Assembly: GCA_039920285.1 (NCBI GenBank)
Contig: JBDSDX010000001.1
Span: 390,001-422,000 of the forward strand
Length of the DNA stretch: 32,000 nucleotides
Reading direction: 5' to 3'
Source of the DNA: Candidatus Saccharimonadota bacterium
Lineage (GTDB): Bacteria > Patescibacteriota > Saccharimonadia > Saccharimonadales > Saccharimonadaceae
The position numbers were made by a program, and so were the translations under genes. The notes beneath the pieces are model-generated. The model ran no database searches, was not told where the DNA came from, and saw only the letters and a program-made list of their open reading frames with translations. Numbering within the stretch: position 1 is the first letter of the stretch; each line of letters starts with the position of its first letter. Below are positions 10,811 to 28,464 of this stretch, one piece after another.

Positions 10811-10813
10811 CAC

Positions 10814-10842
10814 TTGTGCTTACGCCCTATTAGCTATACGAT
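10814..10842 (+). promoter_or_regulatory. putative promoter of the first collar-pilin gene (TTGTGC-17 nt-TACGAT); duplicated at 13023-13051
   Basis: TTGTGC at 10814-10819 and TACGAT at 10837-10842 (inside gcTATACGAT). AGGGG SD-like element at 10856-10860. The same string recurs upstream of the paralog. Confidence 0.4.
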
Positions 10843-10865
10843 AAAAGGAGTAAAAAGGGGTACCT

Positions 10866-13007
10866 GTGACTCACAACCGTCAAACGGCGTTTACGATTGT
10901 CGAACTTATCGTTGTTATATCGGTTATTGCTGTATTGGTGGCCATCTCAATCGTTTCTTATAGCGGCTGGCAGAATGGTGTGCGTGCCTCTGTGGTAAAA
11001 AATGATCTTAATGCCGCTGCCGCAACGCTTGAGAATGCTCGTAGTTTAGCAACGGTCGGCGGATACCCCACAACTGACCCTTCGTTTACCCGTAGTGAAA
11101 ACGTCAGTATCACCTTTACGATGCTCCAGACTGACCAGTATTGTGTCGATGGGCACTCAATTCAAGATACGTCGATAGAGTATTATATGTATTCGAAAAC
11201 AAAAGAAGGTGGTCCAAAAGCAGGCAGCTGTGCAACTCGCACAGACCTCACGCCACCAGTCGCACCAGCAAGTATTACGATAGCTTCTTCGACTGGAACG
11301 ACCGCCATTGTAAACTGGCCTTCAGTGGCTGACGCGGACACGTATATTGCACAGTGTGCATCTGATCCCGCATTCATCTATGGTTTAAAGCAAACGACAG
11401 CAGTAAATAACTCAGGAACCGTTAGTGCGACAGTGAACAATCTGACGCCCAGTAGCCTGTTTTATTGTCGGGTGAAATCGGTCAATGCGAAAGGCGTGAG
11501 TCTTTGGTCAGGAGCGAGTACCGCAACCACCAGTACGACATATGATGCGTTTGCGACGGCAACGTCGATCGAAGGGTATTGGACCTCGCCACCAGAGGGT
11601 TTCTTGCTTGAAGATGGCTCAGCTGTCTCACGCACGACATACGCTGATTTATTTGCAGTCATTGGTACTACGTACGGGCCTGGTAACGGTACCACAACTT
11701 TTAATGTACCTGATTCTCGCGGCCGAGTAGCCGTGAATAAGAATCCGTCAGATGCTGAATTCGACACCATGGGTGAGAAGTACGGTGAAAAAGCACACAT
11801 ACTCACGATTGCCGAGATGCCATCACATACTCATAAGCTCCCTTATTTAACTACTGACGTATCCGATTATTTCGGAGGTGGGGGGAATCCTTACGGTATA
11901 TCGTCATCCTACGCGACGAAAACCGGCACTTATGATCCACTTGAACCTGTTGGTGGCGATGGTGCGCACAATAATATTCAGCCTTCAATAGTAAAGACAT
12001 CCGCTATCAAGTTTACCGTCTCTTCGGGATCTCAATCGACACTTCCGTCAGGAACTTCTAGTGAAGGGTATTGGACGACTGCGCCGAGCGGCTATCTGCT
12101 TGAAGATGGTGCAGCAGTTTCACGAGCAACCTATTCTGATCTTTTTGCAGCGATAGGCACGACATATGGGGCTGGTAATGGCTCGACAACCTTTAACGTT
12201 CCCGATTCTCGTGGCAGGACTGCAGTTAATAAAAACCCGTCAGATACAGAGTTCGACACCATGGGTGAGAAATACGGTGAGAAAACACATACCTTAACGA
12301 TTGCTGAAATGCCCTCACACACTCACAAGATACCCTATCTAGCGAGTGGAAATGATGTATCAGATTACTTTGGAGGATCTGGTACGCCCTATGGTATCGC
12401 AACTTCTTACGTAACGAAATCAGGCACGTATGACTTACTTGAACCCGTCGGTGGCGATGGTGCGCACAATACCATTCAACCTTCGATAGTGAAATTATTC
12501 GCAATCAAATACACCCCCGCAGCAGGGACCGCTGCGGCAGTTGCAAAAGGCAGCACAATTAAGGGATATTGGACGACTGTCCCTAGTGGGTATCTGTCTG
12601 AAGACGGTACAGCAGTTTCACGAGCAACCTATTCAGATTTATTTGCAGTCATCGGGACAACATATGGAGCAGGTAATGGGACGACAACGTTTAACCTGCC
12701 AAATTCTCGAGGCCGGACATCAGTTAATATGAGTCCAGTTGATGCTGAATTCAATACGATAGGCGAGAAGTATGGCGAAAAAGCACACACACTCACTATT
12801 GCAGAAATGCCCTCACATACTCACAAAATACCGTATTTGAATAGTGATGTATCTGATTATCTTGCGGGATCTGGAGCAGATTATGGCATCTCGACTTCAT
12901 ATTCGACGAAATCAGGGGTGTATGACTCCCTCGAACCTGTTGGTGGTGATGGGGCTCATAATACCGTTCAACCTTCAATCGTAAAAATGTTTGTGATTAA
13001 GTTTTAA
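10866..13007 (+). CDS. modular type IV pilin-like protein: prepilin signal + pilin head + FN3 + three tandem phage tail-collar (MdpB-like) units
   Basis: 713 aa, GTG start. N-terminus MTHNRQTA|FTIVELIVVISVIAVLVA has Phe+1 and Glu+5. Cys pair QYCVDG...SCATR. FN3-like aa ~128-225. Three units with GYW at aa 237, 401 and 567. Each unit has GYLLEDG.AVSR.TY.DLFA.IGTTYG.GNG.TTFN.P.SRGR ... MPSHTH ... GGDGAHN.IQPSIVK...IK(F/Y). Confidence 0.9.
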   Translation: MTHNRQTAFTIVELIVVISVIAVLVAISIVSYSGWQNGVRASVVKNDLNAAAATLENARSLATVGGYPTTDPSFTRSENVSITFTMLQTDQYCVDGHSIQDTSIEYYMYSKTKEGGPKAGSCATRTDLTPPVAPASITIASSTGTTAIVNWPSVADADTYIAQCASDPAFIYGLKQTTAVNNSGTVSATVNNLTPSSLFYCRVKSVNAKGVSLWSGASTATTSTTYDAFATATSIEGYWTSPPEGFLLEDGSAVSRTTYADLFAVIGTTYGPGNGTTTFNVPDSRGRVAVNKNPSDAEFDTMGEKYGEKAHILTIAEMPSHTHKLPYLTTDVSDYFGGGGNPYGISSSYATKTGTYDPLEPVGGDGAHNNIQPSIVKTSAIKFTVSSGSQSTLPSGTSSEGYWTTAPSGYLLEDGAAVSRATYSDLFAAIGTTYGAGNGSTTFNVPDSRGRTAVNKNPSDTEFDTMGEKYGEKTHTLTIAEMPSHTHKIPYLASGNDVSDYFGGSGTPYGIATSYVTKSGTYDLLEPVGGDGAHNTIQPSIVKLFAIKYTPAAGTAAAVAKGSTIKGYWTTVPSGYLSEDGTAVSRATYSDLFAVIGTTYGAGNGTTTFNLPNSRGRTSVNMSPVDAEFNTIGEKYGEKAHTLTIAEMPSHTHKIPYLNSDVSDYLAGSGADYGISTSYSTKSGVYDSLEPVGGDGAHNTVQPSIVKMFVIKF
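11559..13004 (+). repeat. three in-frame tandem coding repeats of about 0.5 kb (collar units A1-A3)
   Basis: Units approx 11559-12014, 12051-12512 and 12549-13004. Long stretches of near-identical DNA are visible, e.g. cagcagtttcacgagcaacctattc in units 2 and 3. Confidence 0.85.
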
Positions 13008-13022
13008 GCATTGACATATAGC

Positions 13023-13051
13023 TTGTGCTTTAGACCTATTAGCTATACGAT
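13023..13051 (+). promoter_or_regulatory. putative promoter of the second collar-pilin gene (duplicate of 10814-10842)
   Basis: TTGTGC at 13023-13028, 17-nt spacer, TACGAT at 13046-13051, AGGGG before GTG 13076. The shared core cttgtgctt...cctattagctatacgataaa is conserved with the upstream copy. Confidence 0.4.
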
Positions 13052-13075
13052 AAAGAGAATAAATAGGGGTGTCTC

Positions 13076-15325
13076 GTGATCCATAATCGTCAAAAGGCGT
13101 TTACAATTGTTGAACTGATTGTTGTGATATCAGTCATTGCTGTATTGGTAGCTATTTCGGTTGTTTCATATAACGGATGGCAAAGTGGCGTGAGAAAAGC
13201 AGCGGTAAAGAGCGATCTCAACGCCGCATCTGCGACACTTGAAAATACACGGAACTTAGCCGGCTCTGGGGGATACCCAACCTCAAACCCGACATTTACC
13301 TCCTCTGATAATGTCACCGTGGTCTTCACTATGCTCCAAGTAGATCAATACTGTATCGACGGCCAGTCAATTCAAGATGTTTCAATTCAATATTATATAT
13401 ACTCGAAGGTAAAGAATAGTGGTCCACAAGAAGGAACGTGTGCGACACGTACCGACCTCACGCCTCCACTTGCTCCTGCGAGTGTTACAATCGCTTCTGC
13501 AACCGGAACGACAGCGATTGTGAACTGGCCTTCGGTGGCTGGTGCGGCATCTTATATTGCACAGTGCGCATCTGATCCGGTGTTTATCTATGGAGATCGA
13601 CAATCAACCGTGACGAACAATTCAGGAACAGTCAGCGCAACAATAAATGATTTGACGCCGAGCACCTCTTTTTATTGTCGGGTGAAATCAATTAATGCAA
13701 AAGGGACGAGTACATGGTCAGGTATTAATAACGCCAATACTGACTCATCATACGGTTCACTGGTAGTCGGAACGTCAATTGATGGTTATTGGACGACGCC
13801 ACCTCAGGGATTTTTAATGGAAGATGGTTTAGCTGTGTCTCGTACAACCTATGCGGCACTTTTCGCTGTTATTGGTACCACTTACGGCGTTGGAGATAAC
13901 TCAACAACCTTTAACCTACCCGATTCCCGTGGACGGACAGCCGTTAACAAGAACTCAACGGATGTTGAGTTTGCAACGGTGGGTCAACTTAGCGGCTCGA
14001 AAGCAGAACAGATAACTATTGCACAGCTACCATCACACACACATATTCAAAACCCACATAACCATAATAGTGGTAAACCGAACCTGTACGTTACTACTGG
14101 CCCAGGTATCAATGTAGATACAGCCAATGGCTCTGCCTTCGGATTTAAATACAATGTTACAACCCCCTCTCCAAGTACGGTTGCTGTAAACCAAACTACA
14201 GGAGGTGATCAAACGCACAATAATATTCAACCTTCAATCGTAAAATTATCGGCAATTAAATTTTCTCTGCCCGACATAGGTGCTACGACTCTTCCCGAAG
14301 GTAGTTCGATCAATGGGTATTGGTCAACAGCTCCGACAGGTTATTTGCTTGAAGACGGGGCTGCTATTTCACGGACTACGTACAGTGCACTCTATGCGGC
14401 GATCGGTACGACTTACGGTGTCGGAGATGGTTCAACAACATTTAACGTCCCTAATTCTAAGGGCCGAGCTGGTGTGAATATTAGTAGCGCAGATACGGAG
14501 TTTGACACGATGGGCGAGAAGACTGGTTCTAAGCGTGAACAATTGTCAGTTGCGCAGATTCCGTCACACACACACATTCAAAACTCACACAACCATAACG
14601 GCGGTGCACCAAACCCCTATGTCACGGATGGCTCATTGGGTGGGGTTGCGGTAACTTCTGCAGCCGCAGCTTATTATGGATTCAGGCTTCAAGCTGCTCC
14701 AAATACGACGGCGACAAATCAGAACACTGGTGGAGATCAAGATCATAATAATATTCAACCATCTATCACAAAATTATCTGCCATTAAATATACAACAACG
14801 AGTGGAGCGTCGGGGAGTGCCGTGCCGACAGGGACGTCATTGTCGGGGTATTGGCCAACAACCATCCCGACGGGCTATTTATCTGAAGACGGCTCAGCCA
14901 TATCAAGGGTTATATACGCCGATCTTTATAGGGCCATTGGAACAACGTATGGTGTCGGTGATGGCTCATCAACTTTCAATATCCCAGATTCAAGGGGTCG
15001 TGTCGGTGTGAATCGTAACTCTGTGGATACACAATTCGATACGATGGGCGAAAAATACGGCGAAAAAAGTCACGTCCTCACTATCGCAGAAATGGCTTCC
15101 CATACTCATATCCAGAACACCCATGATCATAATAGTGGCGGCATTACCTATATTAGTGACGGGAGTTTTGGTGGATCTGCAGCTACCTCAGCTAATGGAA
15201 CAGCCTACGGATTCACACTTATTGCTCAGCCAAGTGTCACGGCAACTAACCAGAATACGGGTGGTGGCCTCTCACACAACGAAATTCAACCATCAATTGT
15301 TAAGCGATTCATCATTAAATATTAG
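13076..15325 (+). CDS. modular type IV pilin-like protein, paralog of 10866-13007: prepilin signal + head + FN3 + three tail-collar units with His-rich inserts
   Basis: 749 aa, GTG start. N-terminus MIHNRQKA|FTIVELIVVISVIAVLVA. The first ~230 aa are mostly identical to the upstream paralog by eye. GYW at aa 237, 414 and 591 (period 177 aa). Each unit carries SHTHIQN.H.HN. Confidence 0.9.
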   Translation: MIHNRQKAFTIVELIVVISVIAVLVAISVVSYNGWQSGVRKAAVKSDLNAASATLENTRNLAGSGGYPTSNPTFTSSDNVTVVFTMLQVDQYCIDGQSIQDVSIQYYIYSKVKNSGPQEGTCATRTDLTPPLAPASVTIASATGTTAIVNWPSVAGAASYIAQCASDPVFIYGDRQSTVTNNSGTVSATINDLTPSTSFYCRVKSINAKGTSTWSGINNANTDSSYGSLVVGTSIDGYWTTPPQGFLMEDGLAVSRTTYAALFAVIGTTYGVGDNSTTFNLPDSRGRTAVNKNSTDVEFATVGQLSGSKAEQITIAQLPSHTHIQNPHNHNSGKPNLYVTTGPGINVDTANGSAFGFKYNVTTPSPSTVAVNQTTGGDQTHNNIQPSIVKLSAIKFSLPDIGATTLPEGSSINGYWSTAPTGYLLEDGAAISRTTYSALYAAIGTTYGVGDGSTTFNVPNSKGRAGVNISSADTEFDTMGEKTGSKREQLSVAQIPSHTHIQNSHNHNGGAPNPYVTDGSLGGVAVTSAAAAYYGFRLQAAPNTTATNQNTGGDQDHNNIQPSITKLSAIKYTTTSGASGSAVPTGTSLSGYWPTTIPTGYLSEDGSAISRVIYADLYRAIGTTYGVGDGSSTFNIPDSRGRVGVNRNSVDTQFDTMGEKYGEKSHVLTIAEMASHTHIQNTHDHNSGGITYISDGSFGGSAATSANGTAYGFTLIAQPSVTATNQNTGGGLSHNEIQPSIVKRFIIKY
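13769..15322 (+). repeat. three in-frame tandem coding repeats of about 0.53 kb (collar units B1-B3)
   Basis: Units approx 13769-14263, 14300-14791 and 14831-15322. Defined from the recurring GYW...EDG...IGTTYGVGD...SHTHIQN...NNIQPSI.K motifs. Confidence 0.85.
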
Positions 15326-15367: not shown

Positions 15368-15760
15368 ATGAAAGAGCAATTTTTCGTTTTTCTCGTCCGT
15401 TGGCTCCTCAACTCATTTGGGCTTTGGGTAGCGGTTCGTCTTTTTGGGACTGGCTACGAACACGTTGATGTCACTGCTGGTATGTGGGGATTTTTGCTTG
15501 CTGGACTGATTTTTTCGGTCATTAATAGTATTTTGAAACCACTGGCCGTGATCTTCTCACTTCCCGCTATTTTATTGACGCTTGGTCTTTTCATGCTGAT
15601 TGTGAATGGGGCTCTGGTGTATCTGTCAGTTGCAATTGCTCCGGGCATTTCTATGTCATTCATGAACTCAATTCTTACCGGAATTATCCTTAGTCTGATA
15701 AACTATATAGTAAGTGCAGCCGTTGAAATTGGCGGAAGTAAATCAGGAGTGAAGGAATGA
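15368..15760 (+). CDS. small 4-TM membrane protein, DUF360 / phage holin family 4-like
   Basis: 130-aa ORF. The pattern F..R.L.N...LW....L, then four hydrophobic segments and INGAL.YL, is typical of PF04020-type proteins. Its stop overlaps the secG start (ATGA at 15757-15760). Confidence 0.55.
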   Translation: MKEQFFVFLVRWLLNSFGLWVAVRLFGTGYEHVDVTAGMWGFLLAGLIFSVINSILKPLAVIFSLPAILLTLGLFMLIVNGALVYLSVAIAPGISMSFMNSILTGIILSLINYIVSAAVEIGGSKSGVKE

Positions 15761-15990
15761 ACATCGATTCAATATTGCAAATTGTTATGTTTGGCTCAGC
15801 CATTCTTATGATCATTGCGATTCTATTACAACAACGAGGCGCAACTTTGGGTGCTGGCTTTGGAGCTTCTGGTGAACTCTATACAACTCGTCGTGGTGTC
15901 GACAAAAATCTATTTGAAGTGAGTGTTGTTTTAGCGGTTGTCTTTGTTCTATCGATTTTGGTCGGCCTTTTACTACCAGCCCTAGGCTAG
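15757..15990 (+). CDS. secG: preprotein translocase subunit SecG
   Basis: 77-aa two-TM ORF with the SecG-like central motif LLQQRGATLGAGFGASG. Confidence 0.7.
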   Translation: MNIDSILQIVMFGSAILMIIAILLQQRGATLGAGFGASGELYTTRRGVDKNLFEVSVVLAVVFVLSILVGLLLPALG

Positions 15991-27105: not shown

Positions 27106-28464
27106 ATGACAGGTCGTCGTATTACCCCGAATCAGATACAGCGAATAACTCGTGGGTTTACGATCGTCGAATTGCTTATTGTCATCGTCGTGATTGGCAT
27201 TCTCGCGACGCTGGCAATTATCGCGTATACAGGGGTACAGAGTAAGGCGATTATTGCTTTGGTGACTGAAGATCTTCAACAAGCCAATAAACAGCTGAGT
27301 ATCTATCACTCTGAAAACAATGAAACATACCCAGTTGATTTAGCGAATACCAATAACGGTACCGGTCTTAAGTTTAATAGTCAGTCGACTCTTATATACA
27401 CGGCATACAACGAAAATACCCCCGTTACGTACTGTTTAACAGCCCTCGTTGGGACAATTGTCTATCACGTTGAAGCTAATGCGCCACCCGTACAGGGATA
27501 TTGCCCGGATCATGAACCTCTCGGTATTGTGGCAGCACCAGCAATTAACACGACAGTTAATAGCTATTCTCAGATAACGGTAGATTGGGATCTTGTTGAT
27601 GATGCTGATTCGTACAGTATTCAGTACACGCCTGACGCTAGTTTTATGAGTGGAATTTCCACGATATCAGGCATTACGGCAGCTACTCAGGCTGTGACTG
27701 GCCTGAATCCCTCAACAACCTATTACTTCCGTGCCTTTTCGGTCAATAGTGTCGGCACGAGTACGGCATCATCTGTCGTATCCGACGATACGCCGGCAGC
27801 ACCAATTGCCGGGTCACCTGACTGTACTGTCGCGGTGAATTCACCGTCACAAATAACCGTCTCGTGGACGAGTGTCCCGGGAGCCGTTTCTTATACGATT
27901 GAGTATTCTACTTCAAGTACCTACACAACGAAGACGACTTTGAGTGGTTTAACGACGAGCCCTCGCGTTATCACCGGGCTATCTGCCGGAATAAAATACT
28001 ACGTTCGTTGCTTTAGTGTCAATGCGAGTGCGGTTGCTGGCCCTACGTCACCGTCCGCCACCGGTATAACGACCATTTCGGCGCCAGATTCACCAACGGT
28101 CTCGGCATCAATCCCTGGTTCTGCTCGCGCCGCGTCATCTGGACCGTGGGCGAAGAACTATCATGGGGATCCGTCATCTGGAACTTGGTATTATGTAGTG
28201 GCGGCAATGTCGAGCTCAACCTGCGCATCGGGAACAACAAAAGAGTATCGTGCGCGTATGCAATACAATTCGCCAACCACGTGGGGAGCATGGACTGGCT
28301 GGACGACAAGTTCATCGTTCTATGCCGTACAGCCAAATAGTGGATATGGTGCTCGTTTCGAGGCTCAAACTCACTGTAAGACCTCAAACTATACTTCAAG
28401 CGGCTCGGCATACAGCTATGGGTGTCGTTGGCGATCAGGCTCAACCACTTGCTCAGGGTTCTAG
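27106..28464 (+). CDS. modular type IV pilin-like protein: prepilin signal + head + two FN3 modules + unassigned Cys/Trp-rich C-terminal domain
   Basis: 452 aa. N-terminus MTGRRITPNQIQRITRG|FTIVELLIVIVVIGILATLAIIAY has Gly-1, Phe+1 and Glu+5. Cys pair TYCLTA...GYCPDH. FN3-like aa ~143-222 and ~232-315. C-terminal ~128 aa has 4 Cys and many W/Y/S/T. TGcTAAAAT ends 7 nt before the ATG. Confidence 0.88.
   Translation: MTGRRITPNQIQRITRGFTIVELLIVIVVIGILATLAIIAYTGVQSKAIIALVTEDLQQANKQLSIYHSENNETYPVDLANTNNGTGLKFNSQSTLIYTAYNENTPVTYCLTALVGTIVYHVEANAPPVQGYCPDHEPLGIVAAPAINTTVNSYSQITVDWDLVDDADSYSIQYTPDASFMSGISTISGITAATQAVTGLNPSTTYYFRAFSVNSVGTSTASSVVSDDTPAAPIAGSPDCTVAVNSPSQITVSWTSVPGAVSYTIEYSTSSTYTTKTTLSGLTTSPRVITGLSAGIKYYVRCFSVNASAVAGPTSPSATGITTISAPDSPTVSASIPGSARAASSGPWAKNYHGDPSSGTWYYVVAAMSSSTCASGTTKEYRARMQYNSPTTWGAWTGWTTSSSFYAVQPNSGYGARFEAQTHCKTSNYTSSGSAYSYGCRWRSGSTTCSGF

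Follow-up and report, generated by a model that had tools for sequence, protein, structure and literature searches.

Two adjacent Saccharimonadales genes encoding modular type IV pilins with a putative single-chain, pseudo-trimeric receptor-binding knob of phage type

Analysis of a 32,000-nt stretch of DNA from a Candidatus Saccharimonadota bacterium (contig JBDSDX010000001.1, positions 390,001 to 422,000, hereafter the window) revealed two adjacent open reading frames (ORFs) on the + strand, gene A (10866..13007, 713 aa, NCBI MEO6109780.1) and gene B (13076..15325, 749 aa, NCBI MEO6109781.1), which we consider will probably prove to be modular type IV pilins of Saccharimonadales, each with a phage-type receptor-binding knob that is pseudo-trimeric within a single chain. 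Such knob pilins are a strong candidate for the device by which epibionts recognise the bacteria they live on. Both genes start with GTG, and both lie exactly where an earlier note, made from the letters of the window alone, had placed them. The two proteins are recorded at NCBI, on a 795,370-bp contig, under the name 'MAG: tail fiber protein [Candidatus Saccharimonadales bacterium]' (MAG, metagenome-assembled genome). A and B are not chance ORFs, since public data contain both proteins in identical form as well as more than 120 full-length homologs of the same architecture.

The N-terminus of each protein consists of an 8-residue basic leader followed by FTIVELIVVISVIAVLVA, with Phe at +1 and Glu at +5, and cleavage is predicted after Ala8. 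The Pfam profile N_methyl (PF07963) matched aa 4-28 above its cut-off of 21.2 in both proteins (22.1 bits in A and 25.9 bits in B), which bears out the prepilin-type signal of the earlier note, and B also passed the cut-off of TIGR02532 (19.4 bits, cut-off 16.3). The residue at -1 has to be corrected, being Ala in both A and B; among 120 homologs, this position is occupied by Gly in 75 and by Ala in 41. Prepilin peptidases generally tolerate one substitution at -1, namely Ala. The short basic leader, Gly or Ala at -1, Phe+1, Glu+5 and about 20 hydrophobic residues together make up a class III signal. In an alignment of 87 family sequences, F9, T10, E13 (the Glu+5) and C93 are invariant and Cys122 is conserved in at least 90%. 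Cys93 and Cys122 both lie in the pilin head, where they account for the single Cys pair that had been noticed in a head of about 100 aa, and judging from the sequence they would fit the usual pilin-head disulfide.

The pilin module covers aa 1-132 of each protein (10866..11261 in A, 13076..13471 in B), and the first 225 aa of B are 73% identical to A. When aa 1-132 of A were modelled with AlphaFold2 from the 87-sequence alignment, the predicted local distance difference test score (pLDDT) was 85.7, and the model consists of a 50-residue alpha1 helix (aa 8-57) and strands at aa 80-88, 91-98 and 105-109. Foldseek search of this module against the PDB returned type IV pilins for all of the top seven matches (6xxd, 5g2f, 4bhr, 4d40, 4noa, 5v23 and 9egp), the best of which was Thermus PilA4 (6xxd, probability 1.00), while the others comprised TTHA1221/1222, a Shewanella pilin, P. 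aeruginosa PilE, N. meningitidis PilV and a Geobacter pilin. The model and its matches support a type IV pilin lollipop fold for aa 1-132, so that profile, predicted fold and structural neighbours all agree with the pilin anchor proposed before. Weak N-terminal matches to GspG, ComGC and PpdD-type pilins in NCBIfam are confined to the generic helix and lie far under the family cut-offs.

Downstream of the pilin module, each protein has one FN3 module, as expected from the first reading (PF00041, 26.3 bits in A and 30.4 bits in B, cut-off 25). It spans aa 133-219 of A (11262..11522), with Cys164 and Cys201 inside the domain, and aa 133-215 of B (13472..13720). With N_methyl, fn3 and three Collar domains, A and B are modular pilins sensu Raynaud et al. 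(2021), i.e. proteins that combine IPR012902 with at least one domain that is not pilus-specific. A third prepilin-type protein is encoded in the same window (27106-28464, + strand, 452 aa). It has N_methyl, two FN3 domains and, unlike A and B, a Cys-containing C-terminal region without family match, and its pilin-FN3 chassis is common with A and B (30% identity, E = 7e-15). Since this chassis is common to all three proteins, one anchor seems to carry interchangeable distal modules.

The remainder of each protein is made up of tandem knob units, exactly three in number. PF07484 (Collar) matched three times per protein (187.8 bits in A and 175.2 bits in B, cut-off 24), and so did PF21939 (Gp10_C; 59.3 bits in A and 54.7 bits in B, cut-off 27); together with the PHROGs matches (best for unit 2 of gene A: phrog_9116 'tail protein', E = 1.2e-40), these place every unit in the tail-collar family to which it had been assigned by eye. 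The GYW motifs lie at aa 237, 401 and 567 in A and at aa 237, 414 and 591 in B, which reproduces the earlier unit periods of 164 and 166 aa in A and 177 and 177 aa in B. In gene A, the units, each Collar plus Gp10_C-like, are located at aa 233-396 (11562..12053), aa 397-562 (12054..12551) and aa 563-713 (12552..13004), and each contains one HxH motif (aa 321-323, nt 11826-11834; aa 485-487, nt 12318-12326; and aa 651-653, nt 12816-12824, respectively). The units of gene B are located at aa 233-409 (13772..14302), aa 410-586 (14303..14833) and aa 587-749 (14834..15322), with two HxH motifs in each (aa 321 and 328, nt 14036-14065; aa 498 and 505, nt 14567-14596; and aa 676 and 683, nt 15101-15130). 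The linkers between units are conserved and short, about 15 residues.

A conservation profile of 330 units revealed strong conservation of the Collar core (unit positions 1-60) and an invariant SHxH. Positions 91-130, between HxH and GGxxAHN, are hypervariable and hold nearly all of the indels, and the unit end GGxxAHNxIQPSIVKxxxIK(Y/F) is conserved again. In the alignment of 85 knob sequences, all six HxH histidines of a triplet are invariant. At the DNA level, the repeat search found the unit copies just 62-75% identical and detected no long exact repeats between them, which gives no evidence for cassette switching or active recombination.

The three units are well supported as an intramolecular pseudo-trimer, which on the present model would resemble a trimeric knob without a homotrimer, as the earlier note had proposed. 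The AlphaFold2 model of aa 226-713 of A (488 residues, 85-sequence alignment) reached a mean pLDDT of 87.5 and a predicted template modelling score (pTM) of 0.87, indicating that the units hold a defined mutual arrangement; low confidence was restricted to the same hypervariable loop in every unit. In trimeric fibres, the HxH motifs of three chains bind Fe octahedrally on the threefold axis (PMC11705849), and every relative with a structure in the PDB is a homotrimeric fibre (cyanophage A-1(L) 8kec, Bizionia C24 6ov6 and T4 gp10/gp12/gp37). The receptor-binding domains (RBDs) of tail-collar proteins are homotrimers of separate chains; here, the three units belong to one chain and the modelled monomer is one body.

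Variation among homologs points in the same direction. In 110 of 120 homologs, the hidden Markov model (HMM) parse gave exactly three units, and in the remaining 10 the envelopes are split by long inserts, most of these giving three, or counts consistent with three, by regular expression. The number of HxH motifs per unit differs between proteins, from 1 to 4 by HMM parse and up to 5 and 6 by regular expression where envelopes are split, and within a protein it is equal in all three units in 107 of the 110 (permutation test: none of 10,000 permutations reached 107, the maximum being 55). Additional motifs are arranged as an HxHxQNx array, and within one protein the units all show one spacing pattern (e.g. 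7,7,9,7,7). Similarly, unit lengths range from 152 to 205 aa across homologs, and the difference within a protein is about 1 aa on average (r = 0.991). Motif number, spacing and unit length thus change in lock-step, and together with the model and the invariant histidines this carries the case for the pseudo-trimer.

Proteins that bear the units in other settings served as a contrast. They were taken from an exhaustive HMMER search (49,853 matches at E <= 1e-3, 405 at E <= 1e-30). In phage-like proteins with three serial units, the HxH counts are unmatched ([1,3,1], [1,5,1], [0,1,2] and [3,2,1]), which is expected if each unit forms its own knob in a homotrimer. Giant proteins contain several triplets that are matched inside the triplet and different between triplets, such as P0138 ([4,4,4] and [3,3,3]) and P0121 ([3,3,3], [4,4,4], [2,2,..] and [3,3,3]). 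Among the viral models of BFVD, none of the 54 significant ones spans more than one knob unit (TMq <= 0.26). For 254 of the 330 units, the nearest relative is the unit at the same position of another protein, with protein A as an exception. Continuous homogenisation of the repeats as the sole cause of the matched HxH counts was ruled out, both by this positional orthology of most units and by the giant proteins with differently matched triplets in one chain.

The units of gene A are 74-79% identical to one another, and each is nearest to unit 3 of two relatives (P0004 and P0005). That all of them are unit-3-like suggests a recent intragenic homogenisation or re-triplication by which three matched units were restored. 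Single-chain matched triplets were also observed outside pilins, in secreted proteins of about 500 aa, Rhs-like toxins and giant FN3 fibres. In two of the giants, P0121 (4832 aa) and P0138 (4616 aa), a truncated pilin-like helix at the N-terminus is combined with long FN3 arrays; P0135, P0211 and P0236 have what by eye appear to be bodies of Rhs/YD-repeat toxin type, and their triplets parse cleanly in P0135 only. The matched triplets in non-pilin proteins indicate that the pilin fusion is one deployment of a broader, apparently undescribed module.

A tblastn search with a single unit against phages yielded 518 records, about 257 of which cover at least 80% of the unit. Among the records listed, the full-unit matches of at least 39% identity are confined to phages of Microbacterium (226 records) and Arthrobacter (33 records), while other phages match the Collar core alone or the full unit at no more than 36% identity. 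The best full-unit identity is 53% (E down to 3e-35), with unit 2 of gene A being 51-53% identical to Microbacterium and Arthrobacter tail proteins. A peptide-pattern scan of IMG/VR gave weaker relatives only (<= 43% identity). Cultured Saccharibacteria parasitise Actinobacteria, including Leucobacter (PMC9894109), and Leucobacter is a member of Microbacteriaceae. Among the records listed, the closest full-unit viral relatives of the knob therefore appear, by sequence, to be tail proteins of Micrococcales phages, a link that is suggestive only.

The family comprises more than 120 clusters at 90% identity with the full architecture. Named records of the family belong to Saccharibacteria/Saccharimonadales MAGs; in species-representative genomes, strong matches were obtained exclusively in MAGs of Saccharibacteria or Patescibacteria. 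A short, 53%-identical knob match was also seen on a 2.2-kb contig binned as Candidatus Woesearchaeota (JAAOYE010000083.1, L015), which may be either a mis-binned contig or a collar unit in another ultra-small episymbiont lineage. In the window, gene A is preceded by uvrA, a branching-enzyme-like gene, L25, an ABC exporter, a rhodanese gene and uvrC. Gene B is followed by genes for a Phage_holin_4_2-family protein and a SecG-like ORF, then SBP_bac_5, tRNAs, BipA, trehalase, a Mur ligase, Ddl and MetK. The first two of these, directly 3' of B (15368-15990, + strand), encode a 130-aa protein with four transmembrane segments and a 77-aa product. The order uvrC, pilin(s), holin-like gene, SecG and SBP recurs in other Saccharibacteria genomes (e.g. 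L001 and L003), with one or two pilin copies. No phage gene was otherwise found in the 32-kb window; the neighbours are housekeeping genes, and with this conserved chromosomal synteny the locus lies outside any phage tail or baseplate cluster.

We infer the incorporation of A and B into a filament, their place at its tip, the binding of metal and the nature of ligand and host as follows. Prepilin peptidase would cleave after Ala8, and the hydrophobic alpha1 helix would anchor the small pilin head in a type IV filament, where the protein would most likely be present in few copies, at the tip or close to it, with the one FN3 domain as a spacer. Folding together in cis, the three Collar+Gp10_C units would imitate, with pseudo-threefold symmetry, the receptor-binding knob that phage fibres form as homotrimers; with three units in cis, the symmetry mismatch would be removed and a whole 'trimeric' adhesin could be borne by a single pilin subunit. 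HxH motifs from all three units would meet on the axis and ligate metal via six histidines per layer, so that A would have one such layer, B two and relatives as many as six. These axial metal layers might act as a zipper, the length of which could change only in all three units together. The hypervariable loops beyond HxH would form the ligand-binding end, the ligand being most likely a cell-envelope glycopolymer or protein of the epibiont's host, and the paralogs A (one layer) and B (two layers) might represent two specificities. Type IV pili mediate host binding in cultured Saccharibacteria (PMC9894109; PMC11623550).

Several observations weigh against this interpretation. TIGR02532 gave 16.0 bits for A, just below its cut-off of 16.3, and Ala at -1 is the rarer cleavage-site residue. 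The pTM of the knob model reports a fixed arrangement and says nothing of which one, so that the convergence of the histidines on one axis is not given by it. Foldseek TM-scores of the knob to solved fibres are low (<= 0.26). Low values are what one would expect from matching a one-chain knob against just one of the chains of an intertwined trimer, but they are no positive proof. The similarity between phage proteins and knob units lies in the conserved scaffold, the hypervariable segment being unrelated; as it is confined to the scaffold, it tells nothing direct about the ligand, and the phage link is suggestive only. The phage collection is also rich in SEA-PHAGES isolates, although a simple database bias is unlikely because Escherichia phages account for just 8 matches and Mycobacterium phages are outside the top host genera. 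Finally, no pilus assembly or prepilin peptidase gene was found in the 32-kb window or in the flanks of homologs. A motif scan of the homolog loci (PilB/PilT Walker A, RQDPD and PilD GxGD) gave one match, a chance RQDPD in an unrelated 262-aa protein (L010). Type IV pilus clusters are conserved in all analysed TM7 genomes (PMC9894109).

The lack of adjacent assembly genes at any locus examined, the 'orphan' position between uvrC and SecG, and the 4,600-4,800-aa relatives with pilin-like N-termini and long FN3 arrays, which seem too large for filament subunits, would all be compatible with a merely pilin-like anchor, i.e. a membrane tether or short pseudopilus stub that presents FN3 and a single-chain adhesin knob on the surface with no long pilus. 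We regard this as unlikely, given that Glu+5 and the N_methyl motif are (near-)invariant, as they are in filament-docking subunits, that the head is modelled with a canonical pilin fold, and that comparable modular pilins enter pili in S. sanguinis (PMC8179133) and, as PilX1 and PilX2, in TM7x (PMC11623550). It is improbable, too, that three pilin chains join in the manner of CofB to form three homotrimeric knobs in series. Knobs in series are under no need to be matched, and those of phage-like proteins are unmatched, whereas the pilin triplets agree in 107 of 110 proteins and consist of three units without exception; moreover, the monomer by itself was modelled as a rigid body (pTM 0.87), and the linkers between units are short and conserved. 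Nevertheless, this arrangement would agree with the homotrimeric state of all solved relatives, with the trimerisation of some minor pilins at the tip (CofB, discussed in PMC8179133) and with the occurrence of phage-like proteins with two or three serial units.

The architecture might also be as described and do another job, in a competence pilus or a type II secretion-like pseudopilus, with a knob that binds the cell's own envelope, DNA, an abiotic surface or, as a decoy, phage. Saccharibacteria are naturally competent and have pseudopilin-like minor pilins (PMC10633639; PMC11623550), and the weak GspG/ComGC/PpdD-type matches in NCBIfam would be in keeping with such a function, but these matches are limited to the generic N-terminal helix and fall far below the cut-offs. 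All characterised relatives of the knob are phage-fibre domains that bind receptors on cell surfaces, and a hypervariable distal segment suits an arms-race ligand better than DNA or self, so there is in our judgement only a small chance that this is the true function. That A and B are remnants of a prophage or a tail fibre, as the label 'tail fiber protein' implies, is effectively refuted by context and synteny, and we attach almost no weight to it. The name assigned by the Prokaryotic Genome Annotation Pipeline (PGAP), the strong matches to phage tail family profiles and the Phage_holin_4_2-family gene downstream are what speaks for a phage origin; against it, the window has no other phage gene and the flanks carry uvrA, uvrC, L25, SecG, BipA and murein genes, the chromosomal position is conserved between genomes, the proteins begin with a prepilin signal and a pilin fold, and no viral protein in BFVD has a three-unit chain. 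A pilin with a single-chain pseudo-trimeric knob remains the reading we prefer.

Upstream of gene A, a conserved element (cttgtgcttacgccctattagctatacgataaa; 10813..10845, + strand) is followed by an AGGGG Shine-Dalgarno-like motif, and a corresponding element with the AGGGG motif precedes gene B (cttgtgctttagacctattagctatacgataaa; 13022..13054, + strand). The two 33-nt elements are identical at 30 of 33 positions, compared with just 72-75% identity in coding DNA. From its sequence, the element may be a putative promoter (TTGTGC-N17-TACGAT) or a 5' untranslated region element. In the promoter and terminator scan no + strand call was made, the 33-nt element was uncalled by the sigma-70 scan, and there were fewer matches than in shuffles. 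The near-identical elements before A and B suggest separate but similar control of each gene.

The earlier note was not aware of any description of this architecture. That holds for the literature on Saccharibacteria pili, tail collars or fibres and pseudo-trimers, in which no discussion of it was found, but Dataset S1 of Raynaud et al. (2021) has a single line, with a count of 1, for the architecture string IPR012902-IPR003961-IPR011083x3, which the main text leaves undiscussed (PMC8179133). The family is undescribed in the TM7x pilus paper (PMC11623550) and in the Cell 2023 genetics paper (PMC10633639). Section 9 of a 2026 preprint on the Pam pilus of the Candidate Phyla Radiation (CPR) reports an unspecified 'tail fibre-like protein' consistently near the pam operon (bioRxiv 10.64898/2026.03.03.709456), which may or may not belong to the collar-pilin family. 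What appears to be new is how large and conserved the family is, together with the cis-trimer logic, in which the putative metal sites evolve in lock-step, and the link to Micrococcales phages. Names of homologs are inconsistent, with 'tail fiber protein' from PGAP and 'prepilin-type N-terminal cleavage/methylation domain-containing protein' or 'microcystin-dependent protein/Tfp pilus assembly protein PilE' from the Joint Genome Institute (JGI). Names as divergent as these hide the family, and the label 'tail fiber protein' is misleading and might raise the number of false prophage calls in CPR genomes.

A central question about the ultra-small CPR/Patescibacteria epibionts is by what means they locate and select the bacteria on which they live. 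Type IV pili have been implicated in this, and recognition elements are known for one oral strain only (PilX1 and PilX2 of TM7x). The collar-pilin family would be a concrete candidate adhesin, whose closest viral relatives, among the records listed, are receptor-binding proteins of Micrococcales phages, and the tandem encoding of a normally homotrimeric phage knob would be a neat structural solution that lets a single pilin subunit bear it. Knob typing might help in predicting hosts for uncultured Saccharibacteria. A wider proposal, which we offer tentatively and hold to be rather doubtful, is that the pilus-tip knob might be a host-range determinant common, by descent or exchange, to Saccharibacteria and the phages of their actinobacterial hosts. 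If so, the knob type (number of metal layers plus hypervariable loops) could predict the host of an uncultured epibiont, tandem paralogs such as A and B could be alternative host specificities, and single-chain 'cis-trimerised' phage RBDs on pilins, giant FN3 fibres and Rhs-type toxins could form an unrecognised adhesin class.

Among known systems, the closest in layout are the modular pilins PilB (vWA) and PilC (lectin) of S. sanguinis and PilX1 (beta-jelly-roll) and PilX2 (beta-propeller) of TM7x, which like A and B combine a small pilin module having a class III signal with a bulky displayed adhesive module (PMC8179133; PMC11623550), and PilX2 contributes to host binding in TM7x (PMC11623550). 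Unlike these, A and B display a phage receptor-binding domain three times, have an FN3 spacer and are encoded outside a pilus locus. The C-terminal RBDs of T4 gp12, gp10 and gp37 and the fibres 8kec and 6ov6 have domain families, fold and the HxH motif in common with the units of A and B; these fibres are, in contrast, homotrimers with one unit per chain and parts of virions, whereas A and B have three units per chain, a pilin anchor and a housekeeping context. Minor tail proteins of Microbacterium and Arthrobacter phages, among them Phrancesco gp40 (189 aa), CastorTray gp22 and phrog_9116, are 41-53% identical over 86-89% of a unit and likewise have SHTH and HNNxQP. Phrancesco gp40 is a free-standing single unit encoded by the last tail gene before lysin A. 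These minor tail proteins differ from A and B in having a single unit per chain, in being virion components and in their hypervariable segment. MdpB, or COG4675 'microcystin-dependent protein', has the Collar core in common with A and B; it is a free-standing, single-unit protein of about 170-200 aa without pilin anchor, a definition that A and B, with 713 and 749 aa, do not fit. The type IVb tip minor pilins of the CofB type (discussed in PMC8179133) have a pilin module plus beta-rich adhesive domains and present a threefold object at the tip, but CofB becomes threefold by trimerising three chains, whereas in A and B the threefold object, as modelled, would be encoded in one chain. The mosaic adhesive trimer (MAT) proteins of Bdellovibrio are phage-fibre-like adhesins by which a predator recognises bacteria (PMC10769870). 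Unlike A and B, they are homotrimeric fibres on the predator surface and neither pilin fusions nor single-chain pseudo-trimers.

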